From Candidatus Latescibacterota bacterium (GTDB lineage: Bacteria > Latescibacterota > UBA2968), in assembly GCA_965205975.1 (NCBI GenBank), contig OZ242195.1:512001-576000 (forward strand): a DNA stretch of 64,000 nucleotides, written 5' to 3'. The notes under the pieces are model-generated. The model had not been told where the DNA came from. It was given only the letters and a program-made list of their open reading frames with translations, and did not search any database. The position numbers and the translations under genes were made by a program. This document shows, piece by piece, positions 4,954 to 16,281 of this stretch. The first letter of the stretch is position 1. Each line of letters opens with the position of its first letter.

Positions 4954-5096
4954 CATAATGTCGAAAATAGTATTATTTGGATGTAATCGCGGCCCTCTCG
5001 TGGGGTCGTTTTTGGTTTATGCAAAAAAGAAACACCCTTTTCGAGTAAATGATGTTACGCGGCGATGTGATATAAGGCTGTAGGTCAGCAGGTAGC

Positions 5097-5696
5097 ATGG
5101 AGGAAATCATGATAACTGAAAATGAATTGCGACGACGCGCCGATGAGGGATCTCCAGAAGCACAGTATGATCTTGGCTGGCGGTATTCCGCAGGTCATGA
5201 TGTGCAGAAAGATGACGAAGAGGCAGTGAAGTGGCTCCGCAAGGCAGCCGATCAAGGTCATACTAAAAGTCAGAATATCCTTGGTTTGATGTATGCCGTT
5301 GGTCATGGTGTACCGCAAGACGATGTAGAGGCAGCAAAGTGGTTTCGCAAGGCAGCCGATCAAGGACTTGCTCAAGCTCAGCATAGTCTTGGTGTGATGT
5401 ATTATTTTGGAAATGGTGTGCCGCAAGACTGTATGGAGGCAGCAAAGTGGTTTCGCAAGGCAGCCGATCAAGGACTTGCCCAAGCCCAGCACGACCTGGG
5501 CGCAATGTATGTAAATGGAGAGGGGACACCCCAAGACTATGTGGAAGCCCACAGGTGGTGGAACCTCGCCGCGGCACAGGGTAATGAGGAAGCGCGGGAG
5601 AAACGCGATATACTTACCAAAATGTTGACCCCTTCTCAGGTCGCCGATGCCCAGTACCGAGCACGCGAAAAAATGGAAGAGATCCACGATGAATGA
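5097..5696 (+). CDS. Sel1-repeat (TPR-like) protein
   Basis: Repeated AQ..LG.MY..G.GVPQD..EA.KWFRKAADQG units with 108-nt DNA periodicity. Confidence 0.93.
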   Translation: MEEIMITENELRRRADEGSPEAQYDLGWRYSAGHDVQKDDEEAVKWLRKAADQGHTKSQNILGLMYAVGHGVPQDDVEAAKWFRKAADQGLAQAQHSLGVMYYFGNGVPQDCMEAAKWFRKAADQGLAQAQHDLGAMYVNGEGTPQDYVEAHRWWNLAAAQGNEEAREKRDILTKMLTPSQVADAQYRAREKMEEIHDE

Positions 5697-6099
5697 AGAA
5701 GAAACATTTGTGGAAGTACTCCAGCAGGAGTTCCTACAAGCTAAAAAAATATACCGGAATCTGGAACAGGTTGTTATTGTCACTACCGAAGATAAGCTCC
5801 GGCTCTGTCTGCATAAATCTATTGACCGTCTCGGCACCAAACGGGAGTGGTGGACACCAGTGGCTCTGTTGGTGACACTCGTTCTTGCACTAACCACGGC
5901 TGAATTCAAAGACCGATTCGCTTTTCCGGCAGCAACTTGGCAGGCATTTTTCTTGCTATTAACATTAGCCTCATTGATCTGGACTTTTGTGGCTATATGG
6001 AAAGCGATCCGAGTCAAAGTATCTGTTGAATCAATCGTATCCGAAATCAAGCAGCAGTCTCCAGAAATAACAGATGTTGAAGTGGGACAGAGAGATTAA
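5689..6099 (+). CDS. Small two-TM membrane protein of unknown function
   Basis: ATG overlaps the end of the Sel1 gene; two hydrophobic stretches (WWTPVALLVTLVLAL; WQAFFLLLTLASLIWTFVAIW). Confidence 0.7.
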   Translation: MNEEETFVEVLQQEFLQAKKIYRNLEQVVIVTTEDKLRLCLHKSIDRLGTKREWWTPVALLVTLVLALTTAEFKDRFAFPAATWQAFFLLLTLASLIWTFVAIWKAIRVKVSVESIVSEIKQQSPEITDVEVGQRD

Positions 6100-6159
6100 G
6101 GGCGATTTTTCTACATACTGGGCTTCAGAAAATGCCACAAAGATAGAGGAAAAGCCACA

Positions 6160-6372
6160 ATGTCTGAGATCATATTTGAAGTCAGCGAGGATGAAGTTGA
6201 TGGCGGATACTCCGCCAATGCGCTGGGATATGGCATCCACACCGAGGGCGAAACGCTTGAGGAACTTCGCCAGAATGTCAAAGAAGCTGTAGAGTGCTAC
6301 TTTGATGAAACGATGAAACGCCTTGGATTGATTCGTCTGTACTCAGACAATGTCGTTGTCCGGTGGGGATGA
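6160..6372 (+). CDS. HicB-like antitoxin-fold small protein; orphan, tail possibly altered
   Basis: EIIFEVSEDEVDGGYSANALGYGIHTEGETLEELRQNVKEAVECYF pattern; no HicA-like partner seen next to it. Confidence 0.75.
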   Translation: MSEIIFEVSEDEVDGGYSANALGYGIHTEGETLEELRQNVKEAVECYFDETMKRLGLIRLYSDNVVVRWG

Positions 6373-6413
6373 GAAGTACCAGAAAGATGAGCAACAGGAA
6401 ATAGGAGTGATTC

Positions 6414-8456
6414 ATGATAGGCAATAGTTACAAAGATAAGAAGGAAGCGGTATTGGACGTGTGTAATCGATATCTATCTTCACGCGGTGATGCCGAGGAT
6501 GGTGTTGATGTAGATTTCCTGAAAGACCGAGTTAAAGCACTGAAGGACAGCCGGTATGTTCTCCTCGTAGCTGGTGAAGTGAAGGCGGGGAAATCTACTT
6601 TTATCAATGCGCTACTCGGAGAGAAAATTTTGCCGACTGATGTCTTTCAGAGTTCGAGTGCTGTCGTCGAGATATGCAAGTCCAAGAAGAAATACGTCAA
6701 GGTTCTCTATGCAGACGGAAAACCTCGGTACGAAGCATTCGAGGATCTGCGAAAGATTGGAGCGATCAAAGATGAATACCGTAGCATTCCGACTACGCTG
6801 ATTGACACCCGTATTGTCGAAGGAAGTATCAAGCCTGGCCATCCGCTTCCCATTGGCGAACTAGAAGCTGAGAGCAAGTTGCGGCTACAAGATGAGAAGG
6901 CACTCATCGAAAAATATGTAAAAAGTCGAACTCTCGCGGACATACCCGAGAAAATTACCTTCGGCTTTCCGCTCAAATACACCTTTGATGGGCTTCGCAT
7001 AGTTGACAGCCCAGGCGTCAGTGCCCGCGGCGGTGTTCAGGGTGTCACCTACGACTATTTCCAGGAAGCAAACGCAGTGCTGTTCATCCATTCGCTTGAA
7101 TCACCTATCGAGAGTAGTTCATTTTACGACTTCATCACTAAGGTCGTGCCTGACCGTACTCGGGAGACGCTGTTCTTGGTCCTCACAAAGAGCGGAGGGA
7201 AGTCAAAAATTGAGATCAATGAAAAGGTCCGCGAGGCACGCCAACGGTACGATAAGGAGTTCGATAAGCATCGAATTCTGCATGTGGATTCCATGCTCAA
7301 AATCGTTTCCGACGAGATTGAGAGCTTCGATTCTGCCGATACCCTCAAGCAATACTACCGTGATCAAAAAGAACAATTCGAGTTAAAATATGAACAGGAC
7401 CAGAGTCAAGAGTGGCGAGATGAGGCGATTAACTTCGATATCAAGCTTAAACTACTAAATGGTGTCCTTGATGATATTGATGGTGATTCTGACTTTGAGG
7501 CCGTCCGATCTGCCCTGCAGGAATCATCTAACTTCGATGAAATGGAACGCGTTATTGATAAGTTCTCAGACCGAGCACCTTTGATTCAACTCACAGAACT
7601 TCTCTTGTCCGTGAAGCACGGATACGGCACACGGGTCGCAAAGCTTAAAGAAAACCTCGCCTTGTGGAACAAACAGAGCAAACACCCGCAGACTTTCGAG
7701 GATGAGATCAGCGAAATTCAAGAACGCTTGAATGAATACCGACACTCGATGAATGAATTTACCGAAGGTGTCACCAGCAAATACACCGGGCGTAATGCCT
7801 TATATCAAAGTTCACTCAAGCAGACCGAAACCGATTATTTTAATCAGATTAATGACGCATCCATGCTTGACGGAGTCAAGAAAGCACTTGCTGACTTTCA
7901 CGACGCGATGAGTGTATTCGCCAATGAGAAAGAGTCAGAAATAAAATCTCTGTTCGAAGACGAGGTGAGACGGTTGGAAGGGCAGTTCAAGACTGAGTAT
8001 TCCATCACTGTACCAACGGTCGATATTTCAGGTATTACAGCCAAGGCAAAAGAAGGGGCGTATCGGGAAAGAGAGGTGCCTAGAGAGCCTAAGGGTTTCT
8101 GGGAATGGACTAAGAAAATAGTCACCTTTGGGATAGCGAAGTTTACCCAGAAGGAGACCATTTATGACTCTCTGGCCCACTTGTCTGCATACAAAAGACT
8201 TGCACATCAGGTTGTAGAAGAGTACAAGGAAAAATTGCCCGGTCTTGTGTCAAGTCTTATTGAAAACTTTAAGACGGATTTCCAGCCATCTCTCAAGCTC
8301 CTTATTGACTCACGTAACAAAGAACTGGAGGACATTAAGACGAGCCAAGCCACAAATGAGGAGATATTGGCGAATATCGATGCGGCAGAGCAGAAAAAAA
8401 AAGACATCGCGGCTCAGGTAGCTTGGATTACCGATATGTTAGGAGATCTCCAATGA
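6414..8456 (+). CDS. Bacterial dynamin-like GTPase
   Basis: G1 GEVKAGKST followed by FINALLG.KILP, G3 DSPG, G4-like TKSG, long helical C-terminus with an aromatic loop (KGFWEWTKKIVTFGIAKF). AGGAG RBS. Confidence 0.9.
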   Translation: MIGNSYKDKKEAVLDVCNRYLSSRGDAEDGVDVDFLKDRVKALKDSRYVLLVAGEVKAGKSTFINALLGEKILPTDVFQSSSAVVEICKSKKKYVKVLYADGKPRYEAFEDLRKIGAIKDEYRSIPTTLIDTRIVEGSIKPGHPLPIGELEAESKLRLQDEKALIEKYVKSRTLADIPEKITFGFPLKYTFDGLRIVDSPGVSARGGVQGVTYDYFQEANAVLFIHSLESPIESSSFYDFITKVVPDRTRETLFLVLTKSGGKSKIEINEKVREARQRYDKEFDKHRILHVDSMLKIVSDEIESFDSADTLKQYYRDQKEQFELKYEQDQSQEWRDEAINFDIKLKLLNGVLDDIDGDSDFEAVRSALQESSNFDEMERVIDKFSDRAPLIQLTELLLSVKHGYGTRVAKLKENLALWNKQSKHPQTFEDEISEIQERLNEYRHSMNEFTEGVTSKYTGRNALYQSSLKQTETDYFNQINDASMLDGVKKALADFHDAMSVFANEKESEIKSLFEDEVRRLEGQFKTEYSITVPTVDISGITAKAKEGAYREREVPREPKGFWEWTKKIVTFGIAKFTQKETIYDSLAHLSAYKRLAHQVVEEYKEKLPGLVSSLIENFKTDFQPSLKLLIDSRNKELEDIKTSQATNEEILANIDAAEQKKKDIAAQVAWITDMLGDLQ

Positions 8457-9115
8457 AACGCCGAATGAGAGTGCGAATCGAGGGAGATATACGCGAGGAA
8501 TTTGATGAACTGCGCGAGAAACTGAGCCGCCACTTTGAACCTGATACGGATGTTGATCAGGCGCGGCGGATACTCATTGAACACGCGCCTACAATGGTCG
8601 TTGCAAAGGCTCAACTCCTCCTTGATACCTTGTTGAATTACTTGATGGAGGATGCGACGGAGGCATTGACTGATGCCCCAATGACGATTAAGAACGCCTT
8701 TTATGACCTTGACCTTAGAGCTTCTATCAAAGAATCCTTTTCTTTAAAACCTGAATTGCTGGAGTTGTCATTCGACCCGCGGATAATAGCCGGTGGTGTC
8801 GCGGCGGGCTCAACGGCTACAGCAGGCGGACTCATGACCGCATTGTTTCTGAGCGGACTAATCTTCCGAATCATTGGAGGAGTAGCCACCCTTGTCGCCT
8901 CTGCGATTGCCTTTCGAATCGCTCACACAGCCGCAACTGGCACTGCTCTCCAGCGATTGCGGAACGGCTTGGAAGAATACCTGACTCATTCCGAGCAGCA
9001 GATGTCTTCGTGGCTAACAGACATTGAAGAAGACTTCGTCGCAGCCTTCAAGAAGTTCCAGGACGAGGTGGAACGATCAAACGGAGGGAAGTCTGATGGT
9101 TCAGAACCAAGCTGA
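8453..9115 (+). CDS. Helical membrane protein resembling a dynamin stalk/paddle without a GTPase domain
   Basis: ATGA overlap with the dynamin stop and AGGAG RBS; Gly/Ala-rich hydrophobic hairpin flanked by amphipathic helices. Confidence 0.75.
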   Translation: MKRRMRVRIEGDIREEFDELREKLSRHFEPDTDVDQARRILIEHAPTMVVAKAQLLLDTLLNYLMEDATEALTDAPMTIKNAFYDLDLRASIKESFSLKPELLELSFDPRIIAGGVAAGSTATAGGLMTALFLSGLIFRIIGGVATLVASAIAFRIAHTAATGTALQRLRNGLEEYLTHSEQQMSSWLTDIEEDFVAAFKKFQDEVERSNGGKSDGSEPS

Positions 9116-12100
9116 AACTAATATAGAAGATGCTCTGCGTGATCTGCTTCCGTTTATGGAGGCTGCTCACGGCGATGTCCTTGCCCACGTAGAGACAGAT
9201 CTGGATAGGGATAGGCTGATGCGCGGCTCCTATCTCTTCAAGGTTTCCTCTGTGGTCCTTCCCGACGGTGTGGACGACATTCAGGGGTTCATTGAGCAAC
9301 GCTATCGAAGCGTTCTATCTGCAGCACACCGCGCAAACTGGACAGTTCTCACCGCGATTGTTGGTTCGCATTCGGGGGTGTCATTGTACTTGGGCTTCAG
9401 GCCGACACAGACAGATTCGTCTGTCGATCCGGATGTATTCGAACGCATTCTTCAAGGACTGCTGCCGGGACTTGCCCTCGACTTTGAGAAAAACCTGAAA
9501 GTAGAGGCGTTGGTTGGCGGCAAGCGTTTTGGCGGCATGCTCTCGGGAGTGCCCGTATTAAAGATCGATGATGAACGCCAGTACTTTAACTTATCTTCGG
9601 TTGTTCGGAGCCTTCATGGTGAGACATACACTCTGCTATTCGTGTCTCGTCCCGTTCGCGATAACGATCTGTCAAACCAACTGAATGCAGTGTTCGATAT
9701 TCGAGACAAATGCCACACGCTGGCAAGACAAACGTGGACGAAAGAGTCAGGAGAAGGTAAGAATTGGCAAACCAGCCAGACTGAAGGAACGACGGAGACC
9801 GATTCTCGGTTTGTTAAGGCTGCCAGCGGAGCTGTAATTGGCGGAGTTGCCGGAGCAAAGGTCGGAGGTTTGCATGGCGCAGTAATAGGTGCCGGAGTTG
9901 GCGCATCTTTGATTCTGGCCGCATCTGGTCAACGTTCTACATCGAAAGCAGATACTCGGACATATGGTGGTGAGTCGCACTGGAGTGAAAGTCTTTCAGG
10001 AGAACAGCAGGTTACCGTGGCATTGGAATTAGAGCGGATTGCCGAACGGCATACAGATCGACTGATGAAAGCTGCCAACGTTGGTCAATGGGAAACCGCG
10101 ATTACCTTTGCTACAGAGACAGCGGCTGGTCGCGATGTACTAACCGGTGCCCTGCTTGGGGAACTCGCCAAGCCGAGTACAGATGTATATCCGCCGCGCA
10201 TTCATCACGATGACCTAACAAATCAACGCCCGCTCCTTCTCCCCAAATACGACCGTTACAGTGCTGTTTTTCCTAAAAGCCTCGCCTCCTATCTGACCAG
10301 TGAAGAGTTAGCCTCCATCGCCGCGCCGCCATGCGAGAATCTGCCCGGGTATGAGATTCGCCGGACCCCTGCTTTGAGTCTGACGGATATCCGATCCTTC
10401 ACGTCCAGCGAGGGTCGGTCCTTAGGCAATGTCTGCGCCCAGGGTCGTCCACTTGAAGGAGTTGAAGTACGCCTCAGTTCGACCGATCTCGCGAAGCACT
10501 TGTTCGTGTGTGGTCTGACAGGTTCCGGAAAAACCACCACCGTCAAGGAGATACTGGCAGCATTGGATGTCCCTTTCTTGGTTTTGGAGTCGGCGAAGCG
10601 AGACTACCGCCAATTGCTCGGTTGCCCCTCGCTGAAAGGGCCACTGCGTATCTATACACCCGGAGATACTTCGATTGCGCCACTACGATTGAATCCTTTT
10701 CATATCATGCCCGGTGTACCGGCGGGTGTTCATATTGACTATCTCAAGGCGATTTTCAACGCTAGTTTTTCGCTCTATGGTCCTATGCCGTACATCGTTG
10801 AGAAGTGCCTTCACAACATCTATCTAAAGCGTGGTTGGAACTTGACTTCCGGAAAACATCCGCAACTCCTCGACGCTGACGGTCAACCGGACAAACAACG
10901 GTATGACAAGGAAGAGTCGCGATGTTACTTCCCGACCCTTCTTGACCTGCGGGATGAGGTTCAGAAATATGTTCGGTCATTGGATTACAAGGGAGAACTC
11001 TCGGACAATATCAGAACGGCTATCATCACTCGACTGGATAGCCTTGCGGTGGGTGCCAAGGGTCTGCTATTCAACACGTCGAAACCGCTCGACATTGAAG
11101 ATTTGCTGGCGAAACGGACTGTACTCGAGTTGGATGCACTGTCGGACGACGACGATAAGGCATTCGTAGTCGGATTGCTCCTCACGCTCATCAGTGAGTA
11201 CCGGCAAACCAACGACCCTTCCCGTAATCCGTTCGCAAAACCAAGGCACGACCTCCAGCACGACCTCCAGCATGTCCTTGTCATAGAGGAGGCGCACCGC
11301 CTTCTCAAGAATGTTGTGCAGGAACGCCAAACCGAACATCTCGGCAATCCTCGCGGCAAAGCTGTCGAGTTCTTCGCAAATGTGATTTCGGAGATGCGGT
11401 CAATGGGGCAAGGGGTTGCTGTGGTAGAGCAAATTCCTTCGAAACTACTACCCGACGTCATCAAGAATACGAACACGAAAATTGTCCATCGGGTAGTGTC
11501 TCACGATGATCAGGCGCTTCTCGCCTCGACCCTTGGATTGGTAGAACAAGAAGCGATCTATCTCACTTCTCTCCAGACTGGCTACGCGCTCTACGCGACA
11601 GAGGGAATGCAACGACCGATTGAAGTCAAAATCAGGCAGACCCTTTCTCCACGGAAAGTTAGTGACAATCAGGTAATGAAGAAAATGTCTTCAAAGATGG
11701 TCGCAGAAGACGAGGCTAATGTGATGGCAATTCGGCATGCTCTGGGTCCGAAAGGAAATGTCTTGGTCTTGCGATTTCTTTGTACAGTGGCGTGCGGCGA
11801 CTCGTCAGAGTCCTCGGTATATGTGCGCGAAGCCATGGCGCAGTTCAAAGCCCTGCTCCTCAAGCACGACCACAGATTCCCGGAGCCAAGCATCAAGAGA
11901 TTTCTAAGCACAGGCGTTATCGAACTATTGGCGAATGGTCAATTCCGCTTAGCAGACGGCAAGGTGCAGGGTATTGTTCCCTTCATCTCACGTCTCTTAG
12001 ATGGTGATGATCAGGCTGGAGACAGCTTTCGAAAACGATTGGCCCAGGGATGGGGGAAAGATGTGCGGGATGGAGCGATACACCGGATACGCGAACTCGT

Positions 12101-12251
12101 TCTTGACCGAGCATTACGAGGAAGGATTGAGCCCAACGATGCTGATATAAACCGAATCGTGGAAACCTACTTTATTGCGGACATCCCGTCCGTACACGAA
12201 ATTTCAAATCAAGTCTTGAGGCGAATTGGAGGATCGGTATGGATCTCTTAA
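9096..12251 (+). CDS. HerA/FtsK-family (DUF87-like) ATPase with N-terminal glycine-zipper membrane segment
   Basis: Walker A HLFVCGLTGSGKTTT, Walker B VLVIEEAHR, Arg finger EMRSMG, VEQIPSKL; GAVIGGVAGAKVGGLHGAVIGAGVG zipper; GGAGGG RBS before ATG 9096. Confidence 0.9.
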   Translation: MVQNQAETNIEDALRDLLPFMEAAHGDVLAHVETDLDRDRLMRGSYLFKVSSVVLPDGVDDIQGFIEQRYRSVLSAAHRANWTVLTAIVGSHSGVSLYLGFRPTQTDSSVDPDVFERILQGLLPGLALDFEKNLKVEALVGGKRFGGMLSGVPVLKIDDERQYFNLSSVVRSLHGETYTLLFVSRPVRDNDLSNQLNAVFDIRDKCHTLARQTWTKESGEGKNWQTSQTEGTTETDSRFVKAASGAVIGGVAGAKVGGLHGAVIGAGVGASLILAASGQRSTSKADTRTYGGESHWSESLSGEQQVTVALELERIAERHTDRLMKAANVGQWETAITFATETAAGRDVLTGALLGELAKPSTDVYPPRIHHDDLTNQRPLLLPKYDRYSAVFPKSLASYLTSEELASIAAPPCENLPGYEIRRTPALSLTDIRSFTSSEGRSLGNVCAQGRPLEGVEVRLSSTDLAKHLFVCGLTGSGKTTTVKEILAALDVPFLVLESAKRDYRQLLGCPSLKGPLRIYTPGDTSIAPLRLNPFHIMPGVPAGVHIDYLKAIFNASFSLYGPMPYIVEKCLHNIYLKRGWNLTSGKHPQLLDADGQPDKQRYDKEESRCYFPTLLDLRDEVQKYVRSLDYKGELSDNIRTAIITRLDSLAVGAKGLLFNTSKPLDIEDLLAKRTVLELDALSDDDDKAFVVGLLLTLISEYRQTNDPSRNPFAKPRHDLQHDLQHVLVIEEAHRLLKNVVQERQTEHLGNPRGKAVEFFANVISEMRSMGQGVAVVEQIPSKLLPDVIKNTNTKIVHRVVSHDDQALLASTLGLVEQEAIYLTSLQTGYALYATEGMQRPIEVKIRQTLSPRKVSDNQVMKKMSSKMVAEDEANVMAIRHALGPKGNVLVLRFLCTVACGDSSESSVYVREAMAQFKALLLKHDHRFPEPSIKRFLSTGVIELLANGQFRLADGKVQGIVPFISRLLDGDDQAGDSFRKRLAQGWGKDVRDGAIHRIRELVLDRALRGRIEPNDADINRIVETYFIADIPSVHEISNQVLRRIGGSVWIS

Positions 12252-12784
12252 TCCCTGAGGGTGTTTTGAGACTGGATGCGAGTCTTGAGGCCTCGGCTGA
12301 GGCACGCGAGGCAATCATTGGCGAACAAGGGCTGATCCAACAACTCGATTCAATCAGGTTTGAGTCGACGATAGAGGCTTTAGCTGCACGCAATGAGGCT
12401 GCGCTGAGAGAGAGGCCACAGATTGAGGTCAATCGAATATCCGGTGTTGCACGAGAAGGGATGGTAGATGGCGAATTGGCGCGTGAGTATCCTGCGGAGA
12501 CTGGAAACCGTATTGAGCGTGAGTGTTATTTACGTAACGCTGAGGGGGAGAGCGTTAAGGATCCGGTGACGGGAGAGGCACGCCGAATCGACTTCGCCGT
12601 TATCAAAGATGGTGAGGTCGTAAAGTCAGTTGAGGTGACTTCCGAAACCGCAGACAAGACAGCCCAAATGGCAAAGGAAGAACGTATCCGAGAGGCAGGA
12701 GGAAATTATATCAAGGATCGCCTTACGGGCGGAATGGTTCCCTTTAGTTCCGGCGTGGAGACAGAGATTCTGAGGAGGGCCTGA
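12239..12784 (+). CDS. Putative toxin with C-terminal restriction-endonuclease-fold (PD-(D/E)xK-like) domain
   Basis: G..RE helix, RRIDF, V.SVEVTS and K..Q..KE pattern resembling REase-type toxin tips. GGAGG RBS; overlaps the ATPase stop. Confidence 0.6.
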   Translation: MDLLIPEGVLRLDASLEASAEAREAIIGEQGLIQQLDSIRFESTIEALAARNEAALRERPQIEVNRISGVAREGMVDGELAREYPAETGNRIERECYLRNAEGESVKDPVTGEARRIDFAVIKDGEVVKSVEVTSETADKTAQMAKEERIREAGGNYIKDRLTGGMVPFSSGVETEILRRA

Positions 12785-13107
12785 TGGGAAATGGAACGAT
12801 ATACGACAAGGTTTCTTGGCACTTTCCGGAAGGGAAAAATTGTCCCAGTCTGGATGCTGCGAAGGTACACTTTGATGTAGTGATGCATTGGCTTAAGTCC
12901 AAAGATTTGCTGTCGGAAGAAGGTTGTGAGGCGATGGAAATCGGTATCGATTCGGACTTTTCGATCACATCCTATATGCTCACCAAAGAGGGCAATCAAC
13001 TCTTGGCGTTGTGCTATACGGAGTGGGCCAATACCGTACAGTATGGCACGCGGCCATCCGAGAGGTTGCTGGAGGATCGCCTGCGGAAAATTGAGAGTGG
13101 TGAATGA
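12784..13107 (+). CDS. Putative immunity protein
   Basis: TGATG overlap with the toxin; 107-aa acidic protein starting YDKVSWH...HF..VMHWL....LLSEEG. Confidence 0.55.
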   Translation: MGNGTIYDKVSWHFPEGKNCPSLDAAKVHFDVVMHWLKSKDLLSEEGCEAMEIGIDSDFSITSYMLTKEGNQLLALCYTEWANTVQYGTRPSERLLEDRLRKIESGE

Positions 13108-13200
13108 AGGCGAATCATTCAAATATGACAGCGATGGCACTATCCTACAAAACGAACACACAATTTGCTCCTACATAATAACAACGGCTAAAGGCCATTT

Positions 13201-14145
13201 ATGCGTAGCAAAAAGCTATCAAAGCGTTCTGGCATCCGACACTCGATTCTCGATGCCATAGGCAATACGCCGATGTTGCGTATCCGGGAATTGGGTGACA
13301 GGATCAATCCCGAGGTTGAAATCTGGGCGAAGTTGGAGATGTTTAACCCGGGCGGATCGGTCAAAGATCGCCCTGCTTTGCAGATGATTGAAGATGCCGA
13401 AAAAGCAGGTGTGCTCACGCCGGAGAAAGTGATTTTGGATTCGACTTCGGGCAATACGGGTATTGCGTATGCCATGATCGGCGCGGCAAAGGGATACCGC
13501 GTCGAGCTGGTCATGCCCGAGAGCGTGAGCATTGAGCGGCGATACGTCATTCAGTCTTATGGATCTGATCTGGTGTTGAGCGATCCCCTTGAAGGCTCAG
13601 ATGGTGCGATTTTGAAATGTCGAGAAATGCTGGCTGCAAATCCCGATTTGTATTACAAGCCCGATCAGTACAATAATCCATCCAATTCCAGGGCGCATTA
13701 TTTGCATACGGCACCGGAAATCTGGTCGCAGACACAGGGGAGGGTGACGCATTTTGTGGCGACGTTGGGCACGAGTGGTACTGTGATGGGTACTGGCAGA
13801 GGTCTGAAGGGATTTAATCCCGATGTGCAAATTATTGCTGTTGAGCCACCCGAATTTCACGGGATTGAGGGGCTGAAAAATATGGATGTGTCCATTGTGC
13901 CGGGTATTTACGATCCATCGGTGTGGGACCAGAAGATACGGATTGAAACGGAAGATGCGTATGATATTGCGCGATGGTTGACGCGAGATATGGGTTTGCT
14001 GGTGGGGCAGTCGTGTGGTGCGGCGATGGCCGCTGCTCTCAAAGTTGCCGAGACTATAGATGAAGGGGTTATCGTCACTTTGTTTCCCGATAGTGGTGAA
14101 AAGTACATGAGTACGCCTCTGTGGCGGCTCGATCCCGTGAGGTAG
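13201..14145 (+). CDS. cysM: PLP-dependent cysteine synthase (CysM-like)
   Basis: IGNTP, KLEMFNPGGSVKDR, STSGNTG, LGTSGT, FPDSGEKY; adjacent to JAB and sulfur-carrier genes. Confidence 0.88.
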   Translation: MRSKKLSKRSGIRHSILDAIGNTPMLRIRELGDRINPEVEIWAKLEMFNPGGSVKDRPALQMIEDAEKAGVLTPEKVILDSTSGNTGIAYAMIGAAKGYRVELVMPESVSIERRYVIQSYGSDLVLSDPLEGSDGAILKCREMLAANPDLYYKPDQYNNPSNSRAHYLHTAPEIWSQTQGRVTHFVATLGTSGTVMGTGRGLKGFNPDVQIIAVEPPEFHGIEGLKNMDVSIVPGIYDPSVWDQKIRIETEDAYDIARWLTRDMGLLVGQSCGAAMAAALKVAETIDEGVIVTLFPDSGEKYMSTPLWRLDPVR

Positions 14146-14147
14146 CG

Positions 14148-14603
14148 ATGTTTGACAAAGCGATTTGGGATGCCATGTTTGTCCACGCACAGCGAGAATA
14201 CCCGGCAGAGTGTTGCGGTATTGTGACCGAAGATGCTGCGGGTGTGCAGGTGATTCATCCGTGTGAGAATATCCAGGACAAATTGCACGCTGCCGATCCC
14301 GAAACCCATCCGCGCACTTCCAGGACGGCCTATCGCATGAACGATATGCATGTGATGAAAATTCAATCGGAGGCGGAGCAAGCGGGTGGGCGGATTGTCG
14401 CGATCTATCATTCGCATATTGACGTTGGTGCTTATTTTTCTCAAGAGGATCAAGACGCGGCAACATTTTTTGGTGAACCAACCTATCCGGGCGTTGTTTA
14501 TCCCATTATTCCAGTAAAAAATGCCCGGGTAGATATCGGTGGGAAAAAAGTTTTTCAATGGCGTGATTCGTCGTCAAAATTTGAGGAAGTGGAAATTCGG
14601 TGA
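14148..14603 (+). CDS. JAB/Mov34 (Mec-like) metallopeptidase
   Basis: EYPAECCG and the JAMM motif YHSH...GAYFS.ED. Confidence 0.9.
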   Translation: MFDKAIWDAMFVHAQREYPAECCGIVTEDAAGVQVIHPCENIQDKLHAADPETHPRTSRTAYRMNDMHVMKIQSEAEQAGGRIVAIYHSHIDVGAYFSQEDQDAATFFGEPTYPGVVYPIIPVKNARVDIGGKKVFQWRDSSSKFEEVEIR

Positions 14604-14625
14604 AATGTAAAAAAGGAGGTAACAA

Positions 14626-14910
14626 ATGGCTGTAACAGTTCGGATTCCAACGCCTTTGCGCAAATTTACAGGTGATCAATCCGATGTAGAAGTGCAGGGC
14701 GCGACGGTTGGGGAAGCTATCGACAATCTCGAAGCGCAGCATGCGGGTATTAAGGAACACATGGTCGATGAGTCGGGCGCTATTCGACGCTTTGTCAATG
14801 TGTATGTCAACGAAGAGGATATTCGCTTTCTGGATGGTCCCGATACCAGCGTCAAAGATGGCGATCAGGTGACTATTGTGCCTGCGATTGCCGGCGGGTG
14901 TTCCTTTTAA
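14626..14910 (+). CDS. MoaD/ThiS/CysO-family sulfur carrier
   Basis: VTVRIPTPLR...FVNVYVNEEDIRFL.G..T...GD.V.IVPAIAGG followed by a CSF tail. Confidence 0.92.
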   Translation: MAVTVRIPTPLRKFTGDQSDVEVQGATVGEAIDNLEAQHAGIKEHMVDESGAIRRFVNVYVNEEDIRFLDGPDTSVKDGDQVTIVPAIAGGCSF

Positions 14911-14926
14911 TCGGTATATCTGACTT

Positions 14927-15358
14927 ATGATGCACATTTCCGCTAAAGGTGACTACGGTTTGCGTGCGGTTTTAGACCTGTGTCTGCACGATGGGGAAGG
15001 GCCAATTTTGCGTACAGATATCGCTGCGCGACAACACATCCCCGAAGCGTATTTGGTACAGTTGCTCAATCTTTTGCGAAAAGCCGGATTGGTACACAGC
15101 ATTCGCGGTCCCAAAGGCGGACATGTGTTGTTGAAACGTCCGGATGAACTGACCGTGGAAGAGGTATTGGCTGCTCTGGAGGGACCTGTCAATTTGGTGG
15201 ATAAGCGCGAAAAGGCTGAGGATGCGGGAACAGATGTGCTCAAAGATGTATGGGAAGCTGTAGGAACCGCTGTGCATGATGTCCTGTCATCGGTGACATT
15301 TGACGATTTGTGTCGAAAGTACCGGGCGCGTCAGATGCCTGTCACATTCCGGATATGA
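14927..15358 (+). CDS. Rrf2-family regulator (CymR-like, no Fe-S Cys triad)
   Basis: ISAKGDYGLRA...YLVQLL..LRKAGLV.SIRGPKGG; lies among cys genes. Confidence 0.88.
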   Translation: MMHISAKGDYGLRAVLDLCLHDGEGPILRTDIAARQHIPEAYLVQLLNLLRKAGLVHSIRGPKGGHVLLKRPDELTVEEVLAALEGPVNLVDKREKAEDAGTDVLKDVWEAVGTAVHDVLSSVTFDDLCRKYRARQMPVTFRI

Positions 15359-16281
15359 TTATGGATGGCGCGAAAACTGGACATACGGTTCTGGATCTGG
15401 TGGGCAATACGCCCATGGTGCAACTGAACTCGATAGGACCTGCAAATGGTGCTCAGATTTGGGCGAAATTGGAATTTTTTAATCCGGCGGGCAGTGTAAA
15501 AGATCGCACGGCACTTGCTATGGTTGAGGCTGCGGAGAAAAACGGGCAGCTCAAGCCCGGTATGACCATTGTGGAATCGACCAGTGGCAATACGGGTATT
15601 GGCCTTGCCATGGTAGCTGCAATAAAAAATTATCAGCTGATTATTACCATGCCCGAAGGCGTCAGCGACGAGCGTACCCGATTGCTCAAAGCTTATGGTG
15701 CCGAGGTTGTGCTAACGCCCGCCCGCGAGGGGATGCGCGGTGCGATTGAAAAAGCGTGGACGCTTAAGGACAAGAACTGTTTTATTCCGATGCAGTTTGA
15801 AAATCCCGCCAATCCCGAGATTCATCGGCAGACCACTGCCCGCGAGATGATTTCGCAACTTGAGGGCGTTCCCGATGCTTTTGTCGCAGGTGTGGGAACG
15901 GGGGGGACAGTGACCGGTGTGGGCGAGGTCTTTAAGCAGGTGCGATCAGATGTCGTGATCGTCGGCGTAGAGCCAAGGGATTCTGCAGTGTTATCGGGTG
16001 GAGAACCCGGCCCCACTGAGATCGATGGCCTGGGCGCAGGCATGATTCCAGATGTGCTGAATACGGAAATACTGGATCGCGTGATTGTCGTATCTAATTC
16101 GGATGCGCGCAAGATGTCAAAGCGGTTGGCCCGAGAAGAGGGCTTGCTGGTAGGGATTTCGTCGGGTGCAGCAGCGCACGCGGCCGTTGTTGTCGCTTCA
16201 GCGATGAGACCTCAACAGATGGTTGCAACGGTATTGTGCGATACTGGTGAACGCTATTTGGGCACGTTTTTGTTTGGCTGA
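15355..16281 (+). CDS. cysK: Cysteine synthase A
   Basis: KLEFFNPAGSVKDR, ESTSGNTG, QFENPANP..H..TT, GVGTGGT, GISSGA, DTGERYL. Confidence 0.92.
   Translation: MIMDGAKTGHTVLDLVGNTPMVQLNSIGPANGAQIWAKLEFFNPAGSVKDRTALAMVEAAEKNGQLKPGMTIVESTSGNTGIGLAMVAAIKNYQLIITMPEGVSDERTRLLKAYGAEVVLTPAREGMRGAIEKAWTLKDKNCFIPMQFENPANPEIHRQTTAREMISQLEGVPDAFVAGVGTGGTVTGVGEVFKQVRSDVVIVGVEPRDSAVLSGGEPGPTEIDGLGAGMIPDVLNTEILDRVIVVSNSDARKMSKRLAREEGLLVGISSGAAAHAAVVVASAMRPQQMVATVLCDTGERYLGTFLFG

Follow-up and report, generated by a model that had tools for sequence, protein, structure and literature searches.

HerA-type anti-phage ATPases dock their effector through an N-terminal HAS barrel, and the stems of β-pore-forming toxins are long, alternating Ser/Thr-rich hairpins with a hydrophobic tip, one per ring subunit. 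Among bacterial dynamins, those of LeoABC promote vesicle release (available part of PMC4159319), and dynamin pairs act against phage, with both Eleos proteins needing their GTPase domains for defence (available part of 10.1101/2022.05.11.491447). Here, we describe a five-gene operon (g1 to g5) that joins a dynamin-like GTPase and a GTPase-less partner to a large ATPase, a toxin gene and a putative immunity gene. It lies in a 64,000-nucleotide stretch of DNA from Candidatus Latescibacterota bacterium (assembly GCA_965205975.1, contig OZ242195.1, positions 512,001 to 576,000), hereafter the window. As far as searched, this five-gene system is undescribed, and it is real and widespread. On balance, we lean towards reading it as a self-contained system for delivering polymorphic toxins through an undescribed export machine. 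Its features, in window positions, are as follows.

6414-8456, + strand: g1, BDLP-type dynamin-like GTPase, 680 amino acids (aa); G1 motif at 6573-6596
8453-9115, + strand: g2, GTPase-less helical bundle, dynamin-stalk-like, 220 aa; hydrophobic hairpin at DNA 8816-8926
9096-12251, + strand: g3, FtsK/HerA/VirB4-superfamily ATPase, 1051 aa
9726-10010, + strand: g3 hairpin, residues 211-305, Ser/Thr-rich, with a hydrophobic Gly-rich tip at 9810-9923; predicted β-barrel conduit
10512-10535, + strand: g3 Walker A motif
11280-11297, + strand: g3 Walker B motif
12239-12784, + strand: g4, polymorphic toxin, 181 aa
12293-12415, + strand: g4 leader, residues 19-59, common to different tip types; swaps map just 3′ of it
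12431-12781, + strand: g4 tip, putative PD-(D/E)XK-type nuclease domain; found at the C-terminus of Rhs, CdiA-like and HINT toxins too
12784-13107, + strand: g5, putative cognate immunity protein, DUF7832-like, 107 aa
6397-13088, + strand: segment collinear with Candidatus Binatia locus L020, 72% DNA identity
5027-13177, no strand: variable block between cysH-like and cysM-like genes, holding a Sel1 gene, a two-transmembrane (2-TM) gene, a HicB-like fragment and the five-gene operon

The open reading frames (ORFs) agree with the initial annotation of the window, which had proposed five co-oriented, overlapping genes headed by a dynamin-like GTPase and closed by a small acidic protein. Genes g1 and g2 overlap by ATGA (8453-8456), g2 and g3 by 20 nt, g3 and g4 by 13 nt, and g4 and g5 meet in TGATG with base 12784 in common. 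An AGGAG/GGAGG ribosome-binding site lies 5-7 nt 5′ of all five starts; the annotation had rightly given one to each of the first four genes, and its limit to those four does not stand, since g5 has one too. Promoter and terminator scans gave signals no higher than the shuffled level. Each of the five genes is single-copy in the host genome (5.56 Mb).

The co-occurrence of these genes elsewhere, which the annotation had named as a test, is clear. A profile of 34 ATPases gave 417 confirmed stretches in a genome collection and at least 377 in metagenomes. We kept the best 79 and the best 80 of these, respectively, and one viral contig; together with seven relatives' regions and the window, this made 168 loci, three of them duplicates. 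Because the kept loci are the best-scoring ones, conservation counts describe the core clade. Blind clustering placed the homologues of g1, g2, g3 and g4 in one cluster each and those of g5 in three. Dynamin and stalk genes stand upstream of the ATPase in 103 of the 112 loci with at least 3.2 kb of flank (duplicates removed), seven more having the dynamin only and two neither. Where both flanks are present, 86 of 97 loci hold dynamin, stalk, ATPase and a typed toxin. Judged from gene neighbourhoods, the five genes form one real unit that travels together. A chance neighbourhood was considered and rejected, co-occurrence being far above chance.

Record titles of carriers, many of them binned genomes, span 14 phyla, and the operon is present in monoderms and diderms alike. 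The family is rare. The search for full-length members beyond the centre genomes was positive in 1 of 398 other genomes from one clostridial class and in none of 400 from each of two phyla. Searches of 72,556 plasmid and 50,697 phage records gave no full-length member; the gene map of one viral contig is that of a chromosomal locus.

The annotation had also predicted that, in a polymorphic toxin system, genes 1-3 would be conserved while gene 4 kept its N-terminus and varied at its C-terminus, with gene 5 varying alongside. This is the pattern observed. Tips, as we call the C-terminal domains of gene 4, could be typed in 150 of 168 loci: LHH (88), WHH (35), the restriction endonuclease (REase)-like tip of the window (22), a second REase-like tip (2), HNH (2) and a non-specific endonuclease (1). 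Of the 18 loci left untyped, 15 stop within 505 bases past the ATPase; gene 4 is broken in one of the others and not seen in two. Pfam supports the LHH, WHH/Colicin-DNase, HNH and Endonuclea_NS_2 tips, and gene 4 of the family measures about 160-290 aa. By architecture, one leader with six tip types, gene 4 is a polymorphic toxin.

Tips are exchanged while genes 1-3 and the leader stay. On a FastTree tree of 106 ATPases, tips changed at least 21 times (shuffled mean, 43). The sharpest case is that of L038 (LHH) and L109 (WHH), whose ATPases are 94% identical and whose tips differ; their DNA is matched at about 90% to approximately codon 65 of gene 4, just past the leader motif, with noise beyond. 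Over 41 residues, the g4 leader of the window and the leader of a WHH toxin are 63% identical. The leader motif is weak, but profiles built from one tip type recover part of the other types above the non-toxin background. When the leader alone was searched for among 1.84 billion proteins, 57 matches were obtained, 32 of them at least 140 residues long; 16 of the 32 carry known tips, 5 are nuclease-like by eye, and the rest are truncated, chimeric or repeat noise. The same search gave two further tips (P0135 and P0183), another PD-(D/E)XK-like domain and a WHE variant of the WHH nuclease. Separately, at L139:6979-7965, between the ATPase and an LHH toxin, a second leader-like ORF of 328 aa with an HExxH motif and no Pfam match is a possible metallopeptidase tip in the core clade.

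The tip of the window toxin (residues 65-180) is also found on toxins with recognized delivery routes. It lies within 19 residues of the C-terminus in 20 of 20 longer homologues, and 17 of these have delivery domains: RHS repeats (13), TPS/haemagglutinin (1), HINT (1) and PAAR-like (2). The family names given to these accessions are in part presumptive. In genomic context, the window-type tip was seen within one Rhs-CT cassette; it was not found on plasmids. As to its fold, the proposed REase assignment holds for the motif, with E73, D118, E132 and K140 invariant in 22 of 22 window-type g4 proteins. It found no backing from family searches: g4 has no Pfam match at E 0.1, no PADLOC family and no match to the catalogued Tox-REase 1-10 profiles, and a profile search gave no solved relative. 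The invariant residues, together with weak Atlas leads to Tox-REase-3/7/9 (0.87-0.89, that is, below 0.9), lead us to infer that the tip is a PD-(D/E)XK-type nuclease.

Toxin tips and the genes behind them are matched without exception. In 141 of 141 doubly typed loci, tip and immunity type pair one to one with no crossed pairs: 84 LHH with SUKH_5-type, 35 WHH with SMI1_KNR4-type and 22 REase with DUF7832-type genes. The immunity profiles were built from clusters made blind to tip type, and Pfam supports the SUKH_5 and SMI1_KNR4 genes. A g5-type gene follows the window-type tip in 22 of 22 loci and follows no other tip. The protein itself (isoelectric point, 4.9) has a weak DUF7832 match in Pfam, and in the Rhs locus L219, the gene behind the same tip aligns to g5 over 78 columns, short of significance (E 0.03, probability 1.6%). 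From the strict pairing with this tip, we infer that g5 is the cognate immunity protein of g4. No SMI1_KNR4 gene was found in the host genome.

Some loci record other arrangements of these pairs. The only second cassette seen, in a short locus (L047:7470-8138), is a 223-aa ORF behind the REase immunity gene that matches the WHH motif and the SMI1 profile. At L211:1107-1598 (G019), a deletion took out the whole machine and joined the dynamin N-terminus and the C-terminal half of an SMI1 immunity gene in one reading frame. At L209:1284-2213 (G015) and in L019 (G001), the machine is deleted or decayed, and what remains is a shortened WHH toxin with its catalytic motif and an intact immunity gene. 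That the immunity gene is intact in both decayed copies favours delivery, but is suggestive only.

The machine encoded upstream begins with two dynamin-related proteins. Dynamin_N matches g1 in Pfam (E 6e-18), its best solved relative in a profile search is the Nostoc bacterial dynamin-like protein BDLP (2j68; E 5e-31), and motifs G1, G3 and G4 stand at residues 54, 198 and 258. It has no hydrophobic or transmembrane segment. By contrast, g2 has a Gly-rich hydrophobic stretch at residues 122-158 and no GTPase domain in a Pfam scan, as the annotation had described it, and this stretch is kept in 118 of 121 g2 proteins versus 3 of 126 g1 proteins. The description can now be refined. The AlphaFold2 (AF2) model of g2 has a pLDDT (predicted local distance difference test) of 90.6, and 12 of its top 15 VIA structural matches are dynamin-family chains (Z 8.2-11.5; 48,161 chains compared), including the stalks of MxB (Z 11.5), IniA (10.9), Cj-DLP1 (10.2) and LeoA (8.6). 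Helical bundles can give Z values as high as 11.5 by chance, so it is the enrichment of dynamin rows that carries the stalk reading. Foldseek with the g2 model returned nothing at E 0.001, only weak alpha-pore-toxin rows. In its predicted structure, g2 is a GTPase-less helical bundle resembling a dynamin stalk. Its origin as a duplicate of the g1 stalk was rejected, the two showing no homology at the profile level (HHalign, 0.6%).

The third protein, g3, comprises an alpha/beta N-domain, a hairpin insert, a motor at about residues 430-860 and a helical C-domain. It carries one intact Walker set (A at residue 473, B at residue 729), so the ATPase part of the earlier HerA-type assignment stands; the HerA part can be refined, the motor being structurally nearer to DndH-C (Z 31.6) and VirB4 (Z 30.5) than to HerA (Z about 22-26.5), with EccC at Z 16.5. 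Its matches to named families are all weak in Pfam, NCBIfam and PADLOC; g2, g4 and g5 match none above its cut-off. The AF2 model of g3 aligns to full-length VirB4/TrwK over residues 33-867, at a root-mean-square deviation (rmsd) of 14 Å, and a fold search with the whole protein returned the motor part only.

The insert is the most distinctive part of g3. The glycine zipper noted earlier is a weak match at residues 241-270, under the Pfam cut-off, and the element itself is the tip of a far longer conserved structure. In the window, residues 211-305 form a 28-residue arm, a 38-residue hydrophobic Gly-rich tip and a 29-residue arm, flanked by two helices and with AF2 strands at both insert ends. 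Two polar arms (medians, 31 and 33 residues) surround a hydrophobic tip in 101 of 101 full-length ATPases examined, and their lengths co-vary (rho 0.77; 85% within 6 residues), with the same sign in 51 of 75 independent contrasts (r 0.37). Serine and threonine make up 34% of the hairpin versus 13% of the whole protein, and small residues alternate with period 2 (+0.36 versus -0.03 ± 0.01 shuffled). From this pattern we read residues 211-305 as a long β-hairpin. By analogy with pore-forming stems, the hairpins of a hexamer might close into a barrel.

The copy in the window derives from another lineage. Its ATPase groups with Candidatus Binatia loci in the ATPase tree and is 76% identical to that of L020, whereas same-genus genomes carry the WHH version, whose ATPases are 40-47% identical to it and group with records titled Latescibacterota. 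DNA at 6397-13088 is collinear with L020 and 72% identical, and nothing outside that segment matches; by this alignment, segment 6397-13088 is the unit that moved. Of 21 same-genus genomes, 11 have nothing in the slot between the cysH-like and cysM-like genes. Five, the window among them, have an operon there (the stalk gene was undetected in one of these); one has a decayed copy, two have deletion remnants and one has other cargo. In the remaining genome, the slot is rearranged, with a partial operon copy beside cysH. The ATPase is carried by 7 of the 21. The empty-site joint (5026 to 13178) is present in contigs from three of four runs, all three from one study. Slot states and ATPase grouping together indicate that the unit has been gained, lost and replaced by a distant version with another toxin at one site.

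How might such an operon work? Inside the producer, g5 would bind and silence g4. The degenerate dynamin pair of g1 and g2 would co-assemble on the cytoplasmic membrane, g2 giving the membrane anchor absent from g1, and would bend the membrane into a tube or vesicle or draw two membranes together. Like its relatives, g3 would form a ring, in which six hairpins could make a barrel of about 12 strands, 80-100 Å long, with the Gly-rich tips entering a membrane. Gripping the leader of g4, the motor would strip off g5 and thread the nuclease via the barrel into a neighbour cell or an outgoing vesicle, and cells without the matching immunity gene would be killed by the delivered g4. Standard barrel geometry (assuming a hexamer) gives a backbone diameter of about 21 Å, so such a barrel would be wide enough for an unfolded chain or for single-stranded DNA and too narrow for a DNA duplex. 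Delivery is favoured by the tip-matched immunity, by the occurrence of tips on Rhs and CdiA toxins as well, by the peptidase fold of one sister-clade tip and by the resemblance of the hairpin to a conduit. A bolder form of this proposal, which we advance tentatively, is a three-protein secretion or injection system: a ring motor with its own β-barrel needle and a dynamin pair shaping the membrane, delivering polymorphic toxins irrespective of envelope. If that were true, the sister clades would be versions of this machine that differ in toxin and needle length, and the 'serine-rich' ATPases perhaps too.

No carrier other than the operon itself is evident for the toxin. In the host genome (98% complete), the TssC, WXG100 and VirB4 families were not found, the searches for the latter two using PF06013, whose control was positive in 3 of 14, and PF03135. 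We also scanned neighbouring genes, covering 88 hand-picked ORFs of 173 at 43 loci, with raw counts and no background control. There were no secretion-system genes among the 88, and integrase, transposase or relaxase genes occurred at 6 of the 43 loci.

Several observations weigh against delivery. The operon holds no outer-membrane channel, wall hydrolase or surface receptor, yet occurs in monoderms and diderms, and the crossing of the wall or outer membrane is left unexplained by the delivery model. Hairpin arms are equally long across envelope types (median 57 in Bacillota and 60.5 in Pseudomonadota), most of the hairpin is of low confidence in AF2, with only its base modelled as paired strands, and the TrwK alignment has the large rmsd given above. 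Orphan toxin or immunity cassettes are common, though not universal, in polymorphic toxin loci such as those of CDI and Rhs; a search for the three main tip and immunity types gave none in the 78 loci whose downstream flank is 4 kb or longer. All recognizable core-clade tips are nucleases, a narrower range than in most delivered-toxin classes. The closest motor structures include DNA-handling defence ATPases, with DndH-C at the top. PADLOC defence matches lie beside the operon at 8 of the 43 loci (type I and type III restriction-modification, PDC-S02/S14/S18/S27, SWIM, Cas13a and Eleos), although 35 have none among the scanned neighbours. Finally, a WYL regulator gene stands upstream of the dynamin in 30 of 90 loci, the window having none.

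Much of this would suit cell-autonomous defence against phages or plasmids, in which the membrane-anchored motor and dynamin pair would sense or capture incoming DNA or an injection site, and the nuclease, freed or fed by the motor, would destroy the invader or kill the cell; polymorphic toxins would have supplied the toxin-immunity pairs as swappable effectors. The WYL genes, the defence matches at 8 loci, the nuclease-only tips and the HerA/DndH motors as nearest folds all fit, as do a patchy, hotspot-bound distribution indifferent to envelope type and the anti-phage activity of dynamin pairs (available part of 10.1101/2022.05.11.491447). Of the two readings that the annotation had proposed, delivery and anti-phage defence, we lean to delivery and consider defence, the main rival, less likely. 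Dedicated, tip-matched SUKH, SUFU and DUF7832 immunity generally marks toxins that reach other cells, in keeping with the available part of PMC3482391. The window tip also caps Rhs and CdiA-like toxins, sister clades have a papain-fold tip, and a long conduit-like hairpin has no clear use in a purely cytoplasmic sensor. Defence genes are missing from the scanned neighbours of most loci, and no PADLOC model fits g1-g5 well.

Allorecognition after membrane fusion, in which the dynamin pair would fuse or bridge neighbours and the toxin-immunity pair would punish non-kin as in the outer-membrane exchange toxins of myxobacteria, is improbable. Bacterial dynamin pairs do tether and fuse membranes (available parts of PMC6104087 and 10.1101/363689), and one toxin-immunity pair per locus with allelic replacement at one chromosomal slot has the look of an identity locus. 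Against this, there is no receptor or adhesin gene, cell walls block fusion of cytoplasmic membranes, and only 7 of 21 same-genus genomes have the ATPase. It is very improbable that g4-g5 is a selfish addiction pair stabilizing genes 1-3 for some task such as membrane repair: in its favour, the block is often gained and lost, but the leader follows the ATPase lineage across tip swaps, the block is readily lost (11 of 21 slots empty) with toxin-immunity remnants outlasting the machine, and no full-length member was seen on the plasmid and phage records.

Beyond the core clade, 16 regions around further ATPase matches included 15 distant relatives (E 1e-49 to 1e-119), and 5 of these 15 keep dynamin(s), ATPase, toxin and then a small gene. 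Their tips are WHH with SMI1 (twice), GH-E with SUFU, an HNH-like domain and a papain-fold deamidase. A plasmid-borne ATPase relative is followed by HNH and SMI1/KNR4 genes. Among dynamin-linked sister ATPases, four have a similar Ser/Thr-rich stretch (0.34-0.41 in 80 residues) and a fifth reaches 0.28; of those without dynamins, three have none (0.17-0.19) and two others are Ser/Thr-rich. Three loci with sister ATPases and no dynamins are possibly further undescribed conflict systems: L203:2571-10833, with two Hsp70-like genes, an HExxH protein and a small gene; L196:7153-17358, with von Willebrand factor A (vWA) and tubulin-like genes; and L195:7062-14914, with an AAA ATPase. In another sister clade (L204-L208), genes for a conserved protein of 195-260 aa and a coiled coil come after a Ser/Thr-rich ATPase; no toxin-immunity pair was recognized there.

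Several neighbours deserve mention. In three Tenacibaculum records (L032, L033 and L035), the Mod and Res genes of a type III restriction system flank the operon. A true Eleos pair (LeoBC and LeoA) stands directly 3′ of the five-gene operon at L157:13659-17476, and at L124:14264-17767 the next gene after the immunity gene is Cas13a-like, with 1168 aa (NCBIfam, 105 of 150 bits). In the window, the same variable slot holds, at 5097-6372, a Sel1-repeat gene (199 aa), a 2-TM gene (136 aa, with a weak PADLOC PDC-M18B match) and a HicB-like fragment (70 aa). The Sel1 and 2-TM genes also lie 5′ of the WHH-type operon in G013 and are retained in G004 and G019, and the HicB-like gene has several contexts among the contigs examined. 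In the same-genus loci L014 and L016, three unrelated genes are inserted between the stalk and ATPase genes, one of which we take to be an Rpn-type transposase. The cluster at 13201-16281 is not part of the system; its genes are presumably housekeeping ones, namely cysM, a JAB/Mov34 protease, a MoaD/CysO-type sulfur carrier, an Rrf2 regulator and cysK.

The role of most bacterial dynamins is a long-standing question. The operon ties one of them to a defined cargo with a selectable read-out, killing and immunity, and so makes that question directly testable. If the operon delivers its toxin, it adds a trafficking route for polymorphic toxins across at least 14 phyla, including gut Bacillota and cultured strains, and a motor that carries its own conduit would be of general interest as a minimal translocase. 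If it is instead a defence, it is still a new five-gene immune system; to our knowledge, SUKH-type toxin-immunity pairs serving as swappable effectors would be unusual in such a system.

The annotation had recognized no named system in this combination of genes, and we likewise found no match via Pfam, NCBIfam, PADLOC or the literature; the PADLOC check it called for yielded no model that fits g1-g5 well. No description of the operon was found in the full-text literature, a search that covered neither supplements nor most subscription journals. The word 'dynamin' is absent from the first 300,000 characters of PMC3482391 and from the available parts of PMC10853773, PMC7159879 and PMC12419801, and occurs in general mentions only in that of 10.64898/2026.10.19.760177.

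Compared with described systems, the operon is a composite. Like LeoABC and Eleos, it places tandem dynamin-fold proteins in an island (available parts of PMC4159319 and 10.1101/2022.05.11.491447). Unlike Eleos, its g2 has no GTPase domain, g1 reaches just 21.5 bits on LeoBC, where the scores of the true pair in L157 are 277 and 328 bits, and Eleos itself has no ATPase, toxin or immunity gene. With Sir2-HerA, DUF4297-HerA and DndH, it shares an FtsK/HerA-superfamily motor beside a nuclease. However, g3 reaches only 28 of 800 bits on the HerA_antiphage family NF042943 and 20 of 850 on NF042944, PADLOC HerA models match it at no more than 49 bits at the motor end only, and, unlike HerA-effector systems, g3 has an N-region of 430 residues that includes a membrane hairpin and is encoded together with a dynamin pair and an immunity gene. 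In the whole-protein AF2 model, that N-region is a large alpha/beta domain aligning with TrwK.

Protein export offers a further parallel, since VirB4 of type IV secretion systems (T4SS) and EccC/EssC of type VII secretion systems (T7SS) use the same motor superfamily, and the N-region also aligns to TrwK. Unlike T7SS, g3 has a single ATPase domain and WXG100 was not found in the host genome; unlike T4SS, the VirB4 family was not found there, and there were no VirB or Ess partners among the 88 scanned neighbours. The best NCBIfam match of g3 (E 2e-30) is NF033849, a 'serine-rich protein' of anaerobes that also pairs a large ATPase with a Ser-rich insert, yet g3 scores 104.7 bits against a cut-off of 650, and 12 core and sister ATPases score 62-123 bits. 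By these scores, the g3 family is distinct from NF033849. In its alternating Ser/Thr-rich hairpin with a hydrophobic tip, g3 recalls β-pore-forming stems (the aerolysin family and binary-toxin translocases), an analogy of pattern only, but its hairpin is fused to a cytoplasmic ATPase.

The closest overall likeness is to polymorphic toxin systems such as Rhs, contact-dependent inhibition (CDI), LXG and MafB, which have a constant N-terminus, a swappable C-terminal toxin and an immunity gene directly behind, and whose LHH, WHH, GH-E, NucA-type and REase tips come with SUKH or SUFU immunity (Zhang et al. 2012; available part of PMC3482391). The window tip is one that Rhs and CdiA-like toxins have in common with the operon. 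What sets the operon apart from these systems is a tiny toxin (about 160-290 aa), an uncatalogued leader and the absence of orphan cassettes. Its machine of dynamin, stalk and hairpin ATPase is likewise unlike the trafficking routes in the available part of PMC3482391. The toxin-immunity module is thus of a known kind, and the novelty of the system rests on the dynamin-stalk-hairpin-ATPase machine.

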